Source of the DNA: an uncultured Acidobacteriota bacterium
GTDB lineage: Bacteria; Acidobacteriota; Thermoanaerobaculia; Multivoradales; SZUA-115
Assembly (NCBI GenBank): GCA_963805975.1
Contig: CAWDVR010000001.1
Location: 512,001 to 576,000, forward strand
DNA: 64,000 nt
Reading direction: 5' to 3'
Part shown: positions 51,073-60,963 of the stretch, piece by piece
Layout of the letters: each line of letters starts with the position of its first letter
Position numbering within the stretch: position 1 is the first letter of the stretch
Made by a program: the position numbers and the translations under genes
The notes under the pieces: generated by a model
The model's database searches: none
What the model was told of the DNA's origin: nothing
What the model saw: only the letters and a program-made list of their open reading frames with translations

Positions 51073-51117
51073 GATGCGGCTCCCCTTTTACGGTTCGTCA
51101 GCCAGAGCGTCGCGAGG

Positions 51118-53844: not shown

Positions 53845-54093
53845 ATGGCGTGGGATGAAGAAGAAGACACCACGATCTACAAAGTCGTCGTCAACCACGA
53901 GGAGCAGTACTCCATCTGGCCTGCCGACCGCGAGAACCCCCTGGGGTGGAACGACGTCGGCAAGAGCGGCCCCAAGGCCGAGTGCCTGGCCTACATCGAG
54001 GAAGTCTGGACCGACATGAGGCCCCTCTCGCTGCGCAAGAAGATGGAAGAGATGGAGCGCGAGCGGCAGGCGGCGCAAGGCAAGTCCAACTGA
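53845..54093 (+). CDS. mbtH: MbtH-like protein
   Basis: [34 protein letters not shown], the full MbtH signature. Confidence 0.95.
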
Positions 54094-54107
54094 CGAGGAG
54101 GCGAGCG

Positions 54108-54413
54108 ATGCGAAACTACACCAAGGCCTACTACCTGGGGGAGCTGCGCAAGTTCGCGGGCTTCGCGGCGGTCGCCGGCCCGGCCGCGGCCCGGCTCGAG
54201 GACGAGACCCCGGTCTACGTGCGCGACGACTTCCAGGTCGTCACCTTCGAAGCGGTGTTCGAGGACGAGGCGCCGGAGGCGGAGCTGGTGGTGAAAGAGG
54301 TGACGCCGGAATGGAAGGCGTTCCTCGAGACCCAGCTCGAGCCGCCGTTCGTCATTCCCGACGACCTCAAGTTCATGTACGAAGAGGAACCGGCCCCGGC
54401 CGCGGCCTCCTAG
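54108..54413 (+). CDS. Small acidic hypothetical protein co-transcribed with mbtH
   Basis: GAGGAG RBS, ATG 54108; MRNYTKAYYLGELRKF..VYVRDDF..VTPEWKAF..FVIPDDL. Confidence 0.65.
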   Translation: MRNYTKAYYLGELRKFAGFAAVAGPAAARLEDETPVYVRDDFQVVTFEAVFEDEAPEAELVVKEVTPEWKAFLETQLEPPFVIPDDLKFMYEEEPAPAAAS

Positions 54414-55774
54414 CCTCCCGGCAGCAAGCCCCCTCCGAAAGCCAGCAGCTCGAGCACCGCCGCGGCCAGCCCGGCCGCGGCGAGCCGGGCGCGCGGCAGG
54501 GCCGCGAGAGCGGCCCGTCCGCCCGGCCGGGCTAACGTACCCCGGGCCAACGTACCCACGGCCAGCGACGCGTAGAGGATCAGCAGCGGCAGGAGTTGCA
54601 CCACGTAGCGCGACTTGACGTGCAAGCCGACGAACAGCAGCAGGTTGTAGGCGAAGAAGGCCGGCAGCACCCAGGCCCAGGCGCGCCGGGCCGGCGGGTG
54701 GAGCGCCAGGCCCAGCGGCGCGGCGGCAAGCAGCAGCGCGTAGAGCGCGTAGCTCGTGCCGCGGAGCAGCACCGCCAGGGCCGGCGGCGCCTGCCAATAG
54801 CCGCGGCGCCGCTCGGCGAGCGCCCCGCCGGGCAGTTGGTCGGTGAGGAGCGAGTCCTTGTCGAAGAGCCGGAAGTGCTGGCGGGAGAGCTGGCCCGCGA
54901 GCGTGGCGAGCCAGCCTTGCTCGGCGATCCGTTGCCGCACCTTGCCGGCGAGTGCCTGGTTGCGCTCGGCGAAGGTCGAGCCGCCGGCCTCGAAGGCGGC
55001 CAGCTCCTCGATCCCGCGGCGGTCGGAGAAGTCTTTGCGCGACGTGTCGTTCAATCCCACCCAGAGATTGAACCGCGAGCTGTCGGCGACGACGTAGGAG
55101 CCGGTGGCACGGCCGTGGGCGACGATCGTGGGCAGCACCACCGCGAGCGCCACTCCCAGCACCAGCGCCGCCGAGGCCAGCGCGCGGCGCCGCGGGCGCT
55201 CGGCGAGCACCGGCAGCAGGAGCACCGGCAGGAAGGGGCCGAGCAGGCTCTTGGCGAGGAGCGCCAGGCCCAGCGCCAGCCCCATCGCGGCCAGCCAGCC
55301 GCGGTGCGCCGGATGAGCCGCCAGGACCCAGAGCACGAAAGCGAAGAGGGCGAGGTGCAAGACCTCGGGCCAGAGGTAGAAGGCGAAAGCGGCGAGCGGC
55401 GGGTAGGCGAGGACCAGCAGGCCGGCGAGGTCCGCGGCCCAGCCCGGCCCCTCTGTAGACCGGGCGCCCAAGCGCCGGGCGAGGTCGCGGAGCAGCCAGG
55501 CGGCCGCCGCCAGGAGGGAGAGCTGGGCCAGGGCCACGGCGCCGCGCGAGCTGCCCGTCGCCCGGAGCAGGCCCGCGAGGAACTGCGAGTAGAGGGGCGG
55601 CCAGAAGAGGTCGGGCTTCACGGCCTCGCCGGCCGCGAGCGCCTCGGCGCGCTCCAGGTAGCGCAGCTCGTCCCCCACCCGGCGCCGGGGCTCGGGGTTC
55701 CACTCGATCCACGCCAGGGCGGCGATCACCACCGAGGCGGCCAGAAGGCCCAGCGCGAGAGACCGGCGGGACAT
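54410..55774 (-). CDS. GT-C (PMT/GT39, ArnT-like) membrane glycosyltransferase
   Basis: First TM then GDE acidic motif, WPPLY, multiple TMs, late SRY motif; start set at ATG 55774. Confidence 0.72.
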   Translation of the reverse strand: MSRRSLALGLLAASVVIAALAWIEWNPEPRRRVGDELRYLERAEALAAGEAVKPDLFWPPLYSQFLAGLLRATGSSRGAVALAQLSLLAAAAWLLRDLARRLGARSTEGPGWAADLAGLLVLAYPPLAAFAFYLWPEVLHLALFAFVLWVLAAHPAHRGWLAAMGLALGLALLAKSLLGPFLPVLLLPVLAERPRRRALASAALVLGVALAVVLPTIVAHGRATGSYVVADSSRFNLWVGLNDTSRKDFSDRRGIEELAAFEAGGSTFAERNQALAGKVRQRIAEQGWLATLAGQLSRQHFRLFDKDSLLTDQLPGGALAERRRGYWQAPPALAVLLRGTSYALYALLLAAAPLGLALHPPARRAWAWVLPAFFAYNLLLFVGLHVKSRYVVQLLPLLILYASLAVGTLARGTLARPGGRAALAALPRARLAAAGLAAAVLELLAFGGGLLPGG

Positions 55775-55838
55775 GGAGGTGGGCAGGATAGCGGCGGCCG
55801 GCGGAAGGCCGCAAGCGAGCGCCGAGGTCGAGGCCGCC

Positions 55839-55938
55839 CCCAGATCCTTCGCTGCGCTCAGGATGACAAGGCCCCCTCTCGCGAGCACAGGGACATCCAC
55901 CCACGTACTGTCATCCTGAGCGCAGCGAAGGATCTGGG
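55839..55938. repeat. Inverted pair of REP-like family B (TGTCATCCTGAGCGCAGCGAAGGATCTG)
   Basis: Perfect 28-bp inverted copies at 55841-55868 and 55909-55936 in a divergent intergenic region. Confidence 0.8.
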
Positions 55939-56004
55939 CGGGGGAGGATCGGAGGAGGGGTACACAGCATGGTAGGGTTGGTCTTCTCGATGATGGGCTC
56001 CCAC

Positions 56005-56370
56005 ATGAAAAGACTCCCCGTTCTCCTCCTCTCCTTCTCCCTGCTCTTCTTTCTCTCGTCGCCGGGTGCCGCGGCCGAAGAGCCGGCGAAGCTCGCCAAC
56101 ACCCTGCGCTGGACCACCGCCAGCGAGGTCGACAACTTCGGCTTCGACATCTACCGCGGCGATCAGAAGGACGGCCCCTTCGTCCGCCTGACCCAGTCGC
56201 CGATCCCCGGCGCGGGCACCTCCGACGTGCCCACGCAGTACGAGTACCACGACGAGACCATCGAGCCGGACCGCGAGTACTTCTACTACGTCGAGTCCAT
56301 CGCCATGGACGGCAGGCGGGAGCACTTCACGCCCGTGGTGCGAGTGGCGCCCAAGCGCCGGCCCGAATGA
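56005..56370 (+). CDS. Small exported single-domain Fn3/Ig-like protein
   Basis: Signal peptide; LRWTTASEVDNFGFDIYR..YEYHD..YFYYVE. Confidence 0.7.
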   Translation: MKRLPVLLLSFSLLFFLSSPGAAAEEPAKLANTLRWTTASEVDNFGFDIYRGDQKDGPFVRLTQSPIPGAGTSDVPTQYEYHDETIEPDREYFYYVESIAMDGRREHFTPVVRVAPKRRPE

Positions 56371-58742
56371 AGGTGCGCTCCAGATTCGCTCGGCGGGCTG
56401 CTCTCCTCGCGCTGGCCGCCGCCGTCGGCGCGAGCCTCGCGGGCGCCGCCGCCCCGAAAGCCGCTCCTCTGCCCGCGGCGATAAAGATCTTCGTGCGCGA
56501 GCCCGGCGTCTACCGGGTGACCTTCGACGAGCTCGCGGCGGCGGGCCTCGCACGCGAACCCTTGGCCAGCCACCGTATCGGGCTCGCGAGCGCCGGCCGG
56601 CCGGTGCCCATCTGGGTCCACGGCGACGGCGACGGCCGCTTCGGCCCCGGCGACGCGATCGAGTTCGTGGGCGAGCACCTGGCCGGCGAGCACTCCTACT
56701 TCAACCCGCAATCGGACGAGAACGTCTACCGGCTGCGCTTCGACGACCCGGCGCCGGCCCGCATGCGCGGCCTGGCCTCCGAGGGGAAGAAGGCTCCGCG
56801 GGCCGGCGGGGCGGCGCGCTTCGAGCGCCGGCTCCACCTCGAGAACGACGACCTGTTGCTGCGCTTCTCCAAGGCTGCCGGCGAGGATGTCGAGCTCTGG
56901 TACTGGGCCAAGCTCGGCTGGGCGGACAAGGAGGCCTTCGCCCTGCCGCTCGAGCTGCCGGGCCGCGAGCCGGCCGGCGCGGTGCGCCTGCGCGTGTCGC
57001 TGCGCGGCTGGTCCTGGCAGCGGCCCGAAGAGCACCGGATGCCCGATCACCGCGTCGAGGTGGCGCTCGACGGCGTGGCGCTCGGCAGCGGCGAATGGGA
57101 CGGTCAGGACGAGCTGGTGCTGGACCTGCCCGCGGTGCCGGCGGCGGCGCTCGCCTCGATCTCCGGAGGGGGAGCGCACAAGCTCACCCTGGGCGTTCCC
57201 CCGCGTACCGCGGAAGGAGCCAAGGACCCGATCGTCGACGTGGTGGTGCTCAACTGGGTCGAGGTCTCCTATCCCTCGGCGCGCGCCGCGGAGGGCGAGG
57301 ACGAGCGGCTCTACCTCGCGGCACCCGGCGCCGCGCAGGGCGTGCTCGAGACCATGGCACCCCTGGTGATCTACGGCGAAAAAGGCAGCCGGGTGGAGGC
57401 GCAGCCGGCCGGCGCCGCCAGGCCCGACGGCAGCAGGCCCTACGCCTTTCCGCTCGCCGCCGGCGAGAGCTGGGTCTACGCGGTGGGAGCCGCCGGACTC
57501 CTCAGCCCGGCGAAGCTGGCGGCGGACCGGCCGTCCGACCTCGCGAGCACGAGCCGGCAGGCGGACTACATCATGATCGCCCACCCCAGCCTGAAGGATG
57601 CGATCGAGCCGCTGGCCGCGCTCCACCGCCGTCGCGGGCTCACCGTCGAGGTGGTGGACGTCGACGACGTCTACGACGAGTTCTCGGACGGCGTGGTCTC
57701 GCCGCGCGCGCTGCGCGATTTCCTCTCCCACGCCTACCACCATTGGGCGCGGCCGGCGCCGCGTTTCGTGCTCCTGGTGGGGGACGCGAGCTGGGACCCG
57801 CGGGCCGCGGAAGCCGGTGAGGACCGCGCCTACGTGGACTGGGCGTTCGCGCCCCGCGACGGCGCCCGCTTCCGGCGGAACCGCAGCACCTCCTACAGTG
57901 ACGAGGCGCTGCGCCGCAACCGCAATCTGATCCCCACCGGCACCTACCTCACTCCCCAGGGCCACGCCGCCAGCGACAACGAGCTGGTGGCGGTGGACGG
58001 CAACGACCGCTACCCGGACCTGGCGATCGGCCGCCTGCCGGTGGTGACGCCGGAAGAGGTGGCGGCCATCGTCAGCAAGACCATCCGCTACCTGACCGAG
58101 CCCGAGGCCGGTGCCTGGCGGCAGCGCATCCTGTGGATCACCAACGAAGACCCGGCGCTCCAGCGGCACAGCGACCGGCTGGCCGCGACCCTCGCCGGCC
58201 AGGGCTACGAGTCGCGCAAGGTCTACCCCGGGGCCACCGGGGCGAGCAACGCGATGCTCCAGCAGACGCTGCGCCAGTCCTTCGACGAGGGCTTCGCGGT
58301 GGTGCACTTCCACGGTCATGGCGGCCGCTACATCTGGCGCACCGGCGTCTCGGACCTGGAAAAGAACAGCGACCTCTTCACCCTCGAGGATCTCGACCGC
58401 CTGGCACCCTCGCACCGGCTCTCGGTGGTGCTGAGCATGACCTGCTACTCGGCGCCGTTCGACCACCCGACGGCGGACTCGATCGGCGAGAAGCTGCTGC
58501 GCTTGCCGGACAAGGGCGCGGTGGCGGTGTTCGCCGCTTCCTGGCGCAACGCCCCGCTCACCGGCTACAGCCAGGCGGTGGTCGAGGAGCTGCTGCGCGA
58601 GAAGACGGTGGGTGAGGCGCTGGTGAAAGCCAAGCGGCGGGCGGTCACCCTGTCGTTGGTCGAGCTCTACAACCTGCTGGGCGACCCGGCCCTCGAGATG
58701 CCGCCGCGGGCCCTGCACGGGCACGAGGCGGCGGCGCCATGA
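56367..58742 (+). CDS. Peptidase C25 (gingipain/PorU-like) cysteine protease
   Basis: Signal peptide; IKIFV.EPGVYRVT, ADYIMIAH, VYDEFS.G, FVLLVGD, AIGRLPV, catalytic His (HFHGHG) and Cys (SMTC), YNLLGDPAL. Confidence 0.87.
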   Translation: MKVRSRFARRAALLALAAAVGASLAGAAAPKAAPLPAAIKIFVREPGVYRVTFDELAAAGLAREPLASHRIGLASAGRPVPIWVHGDGDGRFGPGDAIEFVGEHLAGEHSYFNPQSDENVYRLRFDDPAPARMRGLASEGKKAPRAGGAARFERRLHLENDDLLLRFSKAAGEDVELWYWAKLGWADKEAFALPLELPGREPAGAVRLRVSLRGWSWQRPEEHRMPDHRVEVALDGVALGSGEWDGQDELVLDLPAVPAAALASISGGGAHKLTLGVPPRTAEGAKDPIVDVVVLNWVEVSYPSARAAEGEDERLYLAAPGAAQGVLETMAPLVIYGEKGSRVEAQPAGAARPDGSRPYAFPLAAGESWVYAVGAAGLLSPAKLAADRPSDLASTSRQADYIMIAHPSLKDAIEPLAALHRRRGLTVEVVDVDDVYDEFSDGVVSPRALRDFLSHAYHHWARPAPRFVLLVGDASWDPRAAEAGEDRAYVDWAFAPRDGARFRRNRSTSYSDEALRRNRNLIPTGTYLTPQGHAASDNELVAVDGNDRYPDLAIGRLPVVTPEEVAAIVSKTIRYLTEPEAGAWRQRILWITNEDPALQRHSDRLAATLAGQGYESRKVYPGATGASNAMLQQTLRQSFDEGFAVVHFHGHGGRYIWRTGVSDLEKNSDLFTLEDLDRLAPSHRLSVVLSMTCYSAPFDHPTADSIGEKLLRLPDKGAVAVFAASWRNAPLTGYSQAVVEELLREKTVGEALVKAKRRAVTLSLVELYNLLGDPALEMPPRALHGHEAAAP

Positions 58743-59119
58743 GATCCGGCAGCACAGCCCTGCGGGCCGGGCTCGCTCTGGCGGTCCTCACGGTGGTGAT
58801 CCTGGGAACGGGCTGCCAGGGTGGCGACGAGGCGGAGAGCCGCAGGAACCTGCTGCGCTGGACCACGAGCTGGGAGAAGGAGAACGTCGGCTTCGACGTC
58901 TACCGCGGGCCGGCACCCGCAGGCCCCTTCGAGAAGCTCACGCCCGTCCCCATCGCCGGCGGCGGCGTGTCGGAGAAGCCGCAGGACTACCGCTTCGAGG
59001 ACACCACCATCGACCCGGCCCGCGAGTACTTCTACTACGTCGAGGTGGTGAAGGCGAACGGCGAGCGGCTGAAGATCACGCCGGTGATGCGCGCCAAGGC
59101 CAAGGCACCGAAGGGGTGA
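58739..59119 (+). CDS. Lipoprotein paralogue of the Fn3/Ig-like protein
   Basis: Lipobox-like LGTGC; LRWTTSWEKENVGFDVYRG..YRFED..YFYYVE; ATGA overlap. Confidence 0.7.
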   Translation: MRSGSTALRAGLALAVLTVVILGTGCQGGDEAESRRNLLRWTTSWEKENVGFDVYRGPAPAGPFEKLTPVPIAGGGVSEKPQDYRFEDTTIDPAREYFYYVEVVKANGERLKITPVMRAKAKAPKG

Positions 59120-60963
59120 GTCGCGGGATCGGCTTCGAGGTCCTTGGGCGAGGTGCTCGACGCCCGAGCTCGCTGCGCGCCTCGCCCAAGGACCTCGAAG
59201 CCGATCCCGCGACGGCACGAGAGAGAAGATCCAAGCGTAACGGCAAGCGAGACGGGTTCGCCTTCGCCGCCATCTTTCTGCTGGCGCTCGCCGTCCGCCT
59301 GCTCTGCCTTCGGCAGCTCGGCGGGTTCCCGCTCTTCGACTTTCCTCTCGCGGACTCGAGGGTCTACCTCGAATGGGCGCGCCAGATCGTGGCGGGGGAT
59401 CTCTGGAGCCGCTCGCAGGGCGTCTTCTACCAGGCGCCGCTCTACCCGTACTTCCTGGCCGCGGTCTCGGGGCTGGCCGGCGAGAGCCTGGGTGCCATCC
59501 GCCTTGCCCAGGCCCTGATCGGCGCACTGGGCTGCGGCCTCCTCACCGTGGCCGGCCGGCTGTTCTTCGATCGGCCGACCGGGCTGCTCGCCGGTGGGCT
59601 CACCGCGCTCTACGCACCGCTGGTCTTCACCGAGAGCCTGATCCAGAAGGAGGCGCTGGCCGCCGCCCTCGCCGCCGCGTTGCTCCTCTCCCTGGCTCTG
59701 GCCGGCCGGCGCGAGCCCGGCTGGCCCTGGCTCGCGGCGGGTGTCGCGCTCGGCGCTCTCTCTCTGCTGCGCGAGAACGCCCTGCTCGTGGCACCGGTCC
59801 TCGCCGGCTGGCTGTTGCTCTCACGGCGCGATCCGCCGGCCGCCGCCCCCCATGGCCTGTGGCCTCGGGTGCTGGCATTCGTGGCAGGCCTGGCGCTGGT
59901 CCTGGTGCCGGTGGCGTTGCGGAACGCGGCCTTCGGCGGTGGCTTGGCGCTGACCACGTCGCAGGCCGGGCCCAACTTCTACATCGGCAACCATGCCGGC
60001 GCCACGGGCTCCTACGTACCGCTCCTCGCCGGCCGGAGCGATCCGGCTTTCGAGCGCCGGGACGCGACCGAGATCGCCGAGCAGGCCGTGGGCCGCGAGC
60101 TGGCGCCGGGCGAGGTCTCTTCCTATTGGTTTCGGAGGGCGCTCACCTTCATGCGTGAGGAACCCGGCGCCTGGCTGGCGCTCCTGGCGCGCAAGGCATG
60201 GATGGTGATGCACCGCTTCGAGCTGGCCGACACCGAGGATCTCTACCTCTTCCGCGAGGCGTCCCCGCTCCTCACGGCCCTTTCCGGGCTCGGCAACCTC
60301 GGGGTCCTGCTGCCGCTGGCGGCCGGCGGCGTGGTCCTCACCTGGGGCCGGCGCCGCGGGCTCGCCCCGCTCTATCTCACCGCCGCGACCCTTCTCCTCT
60401 CCGTTGCCCTGGCCTTCGTCTTCAGCCGCTACCGGTTGCCGGCCGTGCCGGCGCTGGCCGTGCTCGCCGCCGCGGGGTTGCGCGAGGCCTGGCTCCGGGT
60501 TCGCGCCGGCAATCTCCGGTCCCTGGCCCCGGCCGCGCTCGCGGTGGCGCTGGTGGCGGTGCCGGTCAACTGGCCGGCGCCGGCCGCGTGGCGTGGGGGA
60601 ACTGGCATGGCCTTCTCGAACCTCGGCGCGGCGCTCGCCGGCCAGGGCCGTCTCGACGAGGCCATCTCCCAGTACAGGAAGGCGCTCGCCCTGACGCCCG
60701 ACCTCGTCGAGGGACACCTCAACCTGGGCTCGACGCTCCTCGTCCAGGGCCGGGTGGAGGAGGCCTTGCCGCACCTCGAGCGCGCCGCGGCTCTGCAACC
60801 GGCGGACGCCGAGATCGAGCTCCAGCTCGCCTTCGTCCACGAGCGGCGCGGCGACCGCGACGTGGCCCGGGCGCACGCACAGCGTGCGCTCGAGCTGGCC
60901 CGCCGTTCGGGCAGCCCCGGGCTCGCGGCCCGAGCCGAGGCGCTGCTGCGCACGCTGCTCTGA
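59116..60963 (+). CDS. GT-C (PMT-like) membrane glycosyltransferase with C-terminal TPR repeats
   Basis: DSRVY acidic loop, FYQAPLYPYFLA, LRENAL, NFYIGN, SRYRLP; TPR (AFSNLGAALAGQGRLDEAISQYRKAL); GTGA overlap. Confidence 0.78.
   Translation: MSRGIGFEVLGRGARRPSSLRASPKDLEADPATARERRSKRNGKRDGFAFAAIFLLALAVRLLCLRQLGGFPLFDFPLADSRVYLEWARQIVAGDLWSRSQGVFYQAPLYPYFLAAVSGLAGESLGAIRLAQALIGALGCGLLTVAGRLFFDRPTGLLAGGLTALYAPLVFTESLIQKEALAAALAAALLLSLALAGRREPGWPWLAAGVALGALSLLRENALLVAPVLAGWLLLSRRDPPAAAPHGLWPRVLAFVAGLALVLVPVALRNAAFGGGLALTTSQAGPNFYIGNHAGATGSYVPLLAGRSDPAFERRDATEIAEQAVGRELAPGEVSSYWFRRALTFMREEPGAWLALLARKAWMVMHRFELADTEDLYLFREASPLLTALSGLGNLGVLLPLAAGGVVLTWGRRRGLAPLYLTAATLLLSVALAFVFSRYRLPAVPALAVLAAAGLREAWLRVRAGNLRSLAPAALAVALVAVPVNWPAPAAWRGGTGMAFSNLGAALAGQGRLDEAISQYRKALALTPDLVEGHLNLGSTLLVQGRVEEALPHLERAAALQPADAEIELQLAFVHERRGDRDVARAHAQRALELARRSGSPGLAARAEALLRTLL
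59120..59213. repeat. Perfect 34-bp inverted repeat inside the 5' end of a CDS
   Basis: GTCGCGGGATCGGCTTCGAGGTCCTTGGGCGAGG (59120-59153) reverse-complements 59180-59213. Confidence 0.85.

Follow-up and report, generated by a model that had tools for sequence, protein, structure and literature searches.

Covalent anchoring of proteins to a glycan by an enzyme of peptidase family C25 is, to our knowledge, known only from the Bacteroidota system of type IX secretion (T9SS). In chaperone-usher and type V pili, and likewise in the engineered pair SpyTag/SpyCatcher, an immunoglobulin-like domain short of one strand is completed by a peptide of another chain. Here we describe a locus in a 64,000-nucleotide stretch (the window, C1:512001-576000) of the 5.36-Mb, 96%-complete genome of an uncultured Acidobacteriota bacterium (assembly GCA_963805975.1), in which a C25 peptidase is encoded beside two small proteins resembling a fibronectin type 3 (Fn3) domain without strand A. 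On balance, the locus appears to be the processing core of a T9SS-independent sorting system composed of a PorU-like C25 enzyme, strand-less Fn3 catchers and cargo proteins ending in a PVEL tail. This sorting module is real, conserved and apparently undescribed: no description of the tail, the catcher or the C25 subfamily was found in the open full-text literature, a scope that excludes subscription journals and preprint supplements.

The C25 sortase PorU (PG0026, PDB 6ZA2, NF033707) acts on a folded C-terminal domain (CTD) of 70–100 residues, and how it recognises this signal without a sequence motif is treated as open in PMC11285876. PMC4560394 describes cleavage at X/(GSA)(VLI) (e.g., D/SVEDI and N/GVEDI), formation of an amide linkage to anionic lipopolysaccharide (A-LPS) or free amines, and an arginine (Arg722, at Cys+32) that gingipains do not have; the linking sugar was found to be amino-acylated, according to PMC7468200. 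A second point of comparison is given by the tripartite sorting systems (LPXTG/sortase, PEP-CTERM/exosortase, GlyGly-CTERM/rhombosortase and MYXO-CTERM/myxosortase). As in the case described here, the accessible portion of a bioRxiv preprint (10.1101/2023.06.07.544157) reports for them one C-terminal motif on many unrelated signal-peptide proteins, polysaccharide loci and strict co-occurrence with one enzyme family; PorU and C25 are not mentioned in that portion. Unlike the tripartite signals, the PVEL tail has neither a transmembrane helix nor a basic cluster, and the enzyme is a soluble C25 rather than an intramembrane protease or a class C60 sortase.

The C25 peptidase (56367..58742, plus strand; 791 amino acids) comprises a signal peptide, a PorU-like N-terminal region and a catalytic domain (PF01364, Peptidase_C25: residues 401-778, E 1.8e-79, 268 bits vs. 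a cut-off of 23), and ends about 13 residues past the latter, with no CTD of its own. His651, Cys693 and Arg727 are intact. Orthologues were collected as the best 80 loci of 279 related GTDB stretches, with a profile built from 27 orthologues (the genomes partly overlap the relatives examined below), and the labels of the closest records are mostly Thermoanaerobaculia or Acidobacteriota. Of 82 orthologue segments, 81 preserve the His motif and 81 the Cys motif, and ASWR, which puts Arg727 at Cys+34, is invariant in 80/80 orthologues. With PorU the enzyme shares the N-terminal region joined to a C25 fold, the His/Cys dyad and, as predicted, action on a C-terminal signal; its Arg may correspond to Arg722 of PorU, the distance from the Cys being about 32–34 residues in the two enzymes, and the (G/S/A)(V/I)E found at P1'-P3' of PorU sites resembles PVE. 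In contrast, PorU is longer (about 1,156 residues) and its signal is a whole folded domain instead of ten residues, whereas the present enzyme would work beside a separate strand-less Fn3 partner.

The earlier note on this stretch, made from the sequence alone, allowed that the enzyme might simply be the PorU of a canonical T9SS, and this reading, or the same with PorU2, can now be given almost no weight. PorU is the top match both by sequence (PDB 6za2, E 1e-15) and by fold (6za2, E 7.7e-29; mean predicted local distance difference test, pLDDT, of the model 81), but the enzyme stays well below the NCBIfam cut-offs for PorU (NF033707, 194.7 vs. 420) and PorU2 (NF052324, 132.3 vs. 450). The absence of T9SS genes that the note had reported for the window extends further: SprA (SprA_N) was found in 0/61 genomes (the positive control, G067, scored 3e-160), and in the genome under study PorV (positive control matched), GldM and GldN (searched without a positive control) and the type A CTD (TIGR04183) gave no match, the last showing one or two weak matches in long proteins of 13/61 relatives. 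None of the T9SS core genes searched was found in this genome, the search leaving out PorK, PorL, PorZ and PorQ; four matches to type II secretion system secretins all fell below the GspD cut-off. We infer that the C25 enzyme acts in the manner of PorU, but it does not belong to the attachment complex of the T9SS.

The genes on either side of that for C25 encode S1 (56005..56370, plus strand), an exported protein of 121 amino acids and the predicted catcher of the PVEL tail, and S2 (58739..59119, plus strand), a lipoprotein-like paralogue from a local duplication, the relationship proposed in the earlier note being borne out by 44% identity. As read from the sequence, the signal peptide of S1 is uncharged, and S2 carries a Cys in a lipobox-like setting. 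Neither protein matched a Pfam family. The nearest ESM Atlas clusters are without names; those that have one (fn3, for 17% of the members; Por_Secre_tail, for 88%) score only 0.83 and serve as a lead. The predicted fold of S1 is an all-beta sandwich (pLDDT 96) for which the top Foldseek structures were Fn3 domains, all of them weak (best E 0.013, none <0.001). The model starts at the strand bearing a conserved Trp; strand A of the seven-stranded Fn3 sandwich is not present, and S2 is also without it. What lies upstream of the Trp strand in stand-alone copies is no more than a signal peptide and a linker of low complexity, PVxLxxF occurring in 0/57 of them. Among the 150 best library matches, 66 close domains gave a single match to the pattern, a hydrophobic signal stretch, and 6/14 intact, more distant domains matched it about 20 residues before the Trp; strand A in such intact domains reads, for example, LPVELSSFTA, PIELTSFIA or LPVTLSAFAA.

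A similar peptide forms the extreme C-terminus of unrelated signal-peptide proteins, with the consensus PVELxxFx(V/I)(E/D). From 54 candidate C-termini taken from the loci, the 51 matching PV(E/Q)LxxF were kept, a selection that fixes the Pro, Leu and Phe of the tail. The stop falls ten residues after the tail Pro in 48/51 and one residue later in the rest. The bodies of the tailed proteins are diverse (P-domain, choice-of-anchor J, metalloprotease-like, beta-propeller, and others without assignment), and no tail model of NCBIfam or Pfam matched in 13 tailed proteins. Genomes carry from 1 to 17 of them. In the genome under study the first is a P-domain protein encoded 10.6 kb beyond the operon (C1:583604-584251) and the second is encoded by a gene ending at C1:628156; cargo genes occur within 15/80 C25 loci, most tailed genes being scattered far from the locus. 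The earlier note regarded the small proteins as adaptors or substrates. Adaptors they likely are, while the likely substrates are PVEL-tailed proteins encoded elsewhere, outside the region studied there; neither these nor the missing strand A had been recognised.

Giant proteins of the genome under study and of many relatives combine a passenger, the same Fn3-like module in intact form, a prodomain and a C25 domain. Their strand A is TPVxLxxF-like, and they differ from the present locus in that cargo, catcher and enzyme, separate here, form a single chain. When the tail profile was run on 23 such fusions, picked for carrying the module and mutually related, the best nearby window lay 20-21 residues before the Trp in 17/23 and ranked in the protein's top 3 in 9/23 (null mean 1.08, maximum 7, in 5,000 draws). 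Judged from these sequences, the PVEL tail is homologous to the strand missing from the small proteins. No characterisation of giant fusions was found in the literature searched. One of them, encoded at C2:600780-605621 of the genome under study (L055), is a ~1,580-aa secreted passenger–intact module–prodomain–C25 protein with His/Cys, of a type common in relatives, and is a candidate self-processing form. The strand-less domain also ends proteins of about 500-700 amino acids (L052, L054, L049, L050, L194) that are encoded close to tailed genes and to C25 members of a second subfamily; these are possible fused chaperone-catchers.

The distribution of the components was examined in the own order (61 genomes, i.e., the genome under study and 60 relatives) and in a second order (151 genomes, the order of G061, labelled Lysobacterales), orthologues being called at E <1e-140 for C25, E <1e-20 for the stand-alone small protein and E <1e-40 for the glycosyltransferase-like GT-C1 described below, thresholds that the analyst placed at gaps in the score lists. 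In the own order an S1-type protein is present in 25/25 genomes with a C25 orthologue (25/0/1/35 for both, C25 alone, small protein alone and neither). With the strict pattern, tails occur in 24/26 small-protein genomes vs. 1/35 others (24/2/1/34); the lone discordant match (G046) is false, and the reversed-pattern control gave one match in the 61 genomes. The distribution is patchy: in six genera (g13, g17, g19, g22, g25, g27) one member has both the tail and the small protein, and another has none of the two. The system is present in the single-contig genomes G025, G101 and G119. In the second order the raw counts are 17/25 small-protein genomes vs. 3/126 (reversed-pattern control, four matches); among these 17 the match in G089 is false, and looser checks, one-sided in that they covered small-protein genomes only, add G161, G166 and G074, giving 19/25. 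Tail matches were also found in all eight further orthologue-bearing genomes with other labels, and in G056 a variant of the tail is encoded next to the fusion of C25 and catcher. Generic C25 occurs in 72/151 second-order genomes, often in long frames that resemble the fused form; therefore tails track this subfamily and not C25 in general. Tail, catcher and C25 in all likelihood act together.

These distributions also bear on the proposal that the small proteins are split-off C25 domains with a structural or regulatory role and the tails an unrelated export or folding signal co-transferred horizontally. The same module stands beside the C25 prodomain in giant fusions, the catcher is fused to the C25 C-terminus in some genomes (L051, L120 and three library proteins, P0036, P0061 and P0098), and tails are missing in some catcher-positive genomes, all of which would suit this proposal. 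It is nevertheless quite improbable: tailed genes lie mostly far from the locus yet track its presence, the tail has its homologue in precisely that strand which is absent from the small protein, and another, far more abundant C-terminal tail (FxDGFE) does not track the locus (22/4/19/16). As a separate observation, the Bacteroidota-labelled bin that contains SprA (G067, L083) also carries a member of the C25 subfamily and a tailed gene, a combination that may reflect transfer or a binning error.

All five open reading frames pointed out in the earlier note were confirmed (GT-C1 on the minus strand; S1, C25, S2 and GT-C2 on the plus strand), as were the intact catalytic His and Cys and the three 4-bp overlaps joining the four plus-strand genes (ATGA 56367-70, ATGA 58739-42, GTGA 59116-19). 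Their association is conserved in part. Counted by six-frame hidden Markov model searches (gene calling missed genes in some loci), the small gene is found in 59/80 orthologue loci, in 55 of these within 500 bp, GT-C1 in 40/80 and both in 39/80; when the count is limited to the 38 loci flanked by at least 6.5 kb per side, the small gene occurs in 29, GT-C1 in 19, both in 19 and GT-C2 in none. The clustering is therefore not by chance. The five genes as a single unit were rejected, as GT-C2 recurs in 1/80 loci, a second stand-alone small gene beside C25 is confined to L060 and L061, two loci from the same family, and GT-C1 is not constant. The conserved core is C25, the small Fn3-like protein and GT-C1; S2 and GT-C2 are local additions.

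GT-C1 (54410..55774, minus strand) is a 454-aa membrane protein resembling GT-C-fold glycosyltransferases, a frequent but not obligate partner present in 21/25 C25-orthologue genomes vs. 2/36 others. It matches Pfam PMT_2 above the cut-off (E 3.7e-6), the ArnT model reaching only 13 bits vs. a cut-off of 567, and has about 10 hydrophobic segments and an acidic pair after the first helix (D35 and E36, each in 38/39). GT4 or GT2 genes adjoin C25 and GT-C1 in about 10/80 loci. In the second order an ABC-2 permease and ATPase follow the catcher in 8/20 loci, near GT2, GT4, sulfotransferase or GDP-mannose dehydratase genes. By gene content, these neighbourhoods point toward glycans. At loci without GT-C1, the neighbour of C25 is often another GT-C related to it or a gene for a membrane-bound protein resembling spermidine synthase. 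The latter, a membrane protein of roughly 1,000 amino acids that includes a spermidine-synthase domain, was seen near C25 in 10/108 loci (L072, L073, L076, L077, L121, L134, L236, L238, L247, L249), among them those of 3/4 orthologue relatives without GT-C1, and could be the source of an amine-bearing acceptor. In the Lysobacterales-labelled order catcher and C25 also bracket or adjoin polysaccharide ABC-export/glycosyltransferase clusters (L232-L235, L237, L242, L243, L245, L248).

An alternative is that a lipid-tethered catcher displays cargo by strand complementation alone, with C25 as an ordinary hydrolase by which the cargo is released or matured. Lipobox-like Cys residues in 38/73 small proteins (by a crude pattern) and long Pro/Ala linkers would suit an anchor, GT-C1 is dispensable, and no acceptor pathway recurs at every locus. 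Still, a lipid anchor is missing from S1 and from many other small proteins, a single catcher gene stands against as many as 17 tailed genes, the PorU-like Arg is invariant and glycan neighbourhoods recur, which together make non-covalent display unlikely.

For binding, cleavage site, transpeptidation, acceptor, the role of GT-C1 and cellular location, we infer the following course. Cargo, catcher and C25, all of which carry recognisable signal peptides, would be exported first. The tail would then, quite likely, fill the strand A slot of the catcher and complete the domain. The catcher, in many cases tethered to the membrane and in some fused to C25, would present the junction to the active site, and C25 would probably cut at or near X|PVEL, a site that resembles those of PorU. 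By analogy with PorU and A-LPS, an amine of an acceptor glycan or glycolipid could resolve the acyl-enzyme and anchor the cargo, a step for which belief and doubt are evenly matched. In the weakest step, GT-C1 would probably help to build the acceptor or glycosylate the cargo. Taken as a whole, the idea that a split-domain ten-residue tag and its catcher license a PorU-like transpeptidase to glue cargo to a surface glycan encoded by the locus, in Acidobacteriota and Gammaproteobacteria without T9SS and with the giant fusions as a self-processing form, is put forward tentatively, doubt slightly prevailing.

In contrast to the donor-strand systems mentioned above, the donor strand is here a C-terminal tag on unrelated cargo, and its predicted role is recognition by an enzyme instead of polymer growth or isopeptide formation. 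Gingipain-processed type V pili do form a surface polymer by strand-exchange assembly. One could accordingly imagine the small proteins as acceptors or building blocks, with C25 linking cargo to the small lipoprotein or driving a strand-exchange polymer, a scheme suggested by the pairing of a strand-incomplete domain with a gingipain-family protease and by C25 and tailed genes in Tad-pilus-like loci (L066, L081, L087; labels read from the sequence). However, the cargo cannot chain because it has a donor strand but no acceptor groove, and the catchers are without a donor strand, so that this scheme is more doubtful again than the splitting-off of a C25 domain. As to the loci themselves, L066, L073, L081 and L087 have C25 and a tailed gene just upstream amid Tad/Flp-pilus-like genes (secretin-like, CpaB-like and pilin-like, as read from the sequence).

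Several observations weigh against sorting by tail, catcher and C25. The genome under study carries just two tailed proteins, few for a dedicated machine. No tail was found in 6/25 second-order small-protein genomes even with looser searches, nor in the catcher-positive G053 (90% complete, 450 contigs), where a loose match is internal to a kinase gene. Of the 25 orthologue genomes, 4 have no GT-C1, and 2 genomes that lack the orthologue do have it. The Arg of this C25 lies two residues farther from the Cys than that of PorU, the giant fused C25s are without the ASWR motif, and Pro at P1' would depart from the preference of PorU for small residues. Finally, kinship among the genomes inflates all co-occurrence P values.

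With three parts, namely a tag of ten residues, a receptor domain of 94 residues and a soluble enzyme, the system could be reconstituted in the test tube. If the proposed sorting by tail, catcher and C25 is true, it would name the signal on many unannotated secreted proteins, account for the common C25 genes of lineages without T9SS (those 72/151 genomes) and perhaps provide a compact tag for site-specific protein ligation.

Other C-terminal signals were encountered. Thirty-two proteins of the genome under study have (I/L)FxDGFE(S/T)GDxxxWxxxVP about 19 residues from the C-terminus (e.g., C1:222381-224669 and C1:424159-425595), and in relatives the FxDGFE pattern ranges up to about 135 matches per genome, with none in 20/61. 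Considered as a substrate signal, it was rejected for not tracking the small protein; it is a second unexplained C-terminal signal, independent of the C25 system. Five IPTL-like tripartite tails are also present in this genome.

The remaining features of the region lie around the core. GT-C2 (59116..60963, plus strand) is a membrane protein with tetratricopeptide repeats that matches PMT_2 above the cut-off, and is not a conserved member of the locus. An orphan MbtH-like gene and a gene of 101 codons (window 53845-54413), convergent on GT-C1 with a 4-bp overlap, form a pair seen at none of the other loci. The starts given earlier for S1 (55969) and GT-C1 (GTG 55900) need revision: most likely they are ATG 56005 and ATG 55774, because same-genus homologues begin there. 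The longer GT-C1 frame crosses a repeated palindrome in the divergent intergenic region (55841..55936), where two inverted copies of a 28-bp repeat resembling repetitive extragenic palindromic elements, unstranded as a feature and outside the system, start at 55841 (minus) and 55909 (plus); the repeat recurs at window position 51116 and has 86 copies in the genome at ≤4 mismatches.

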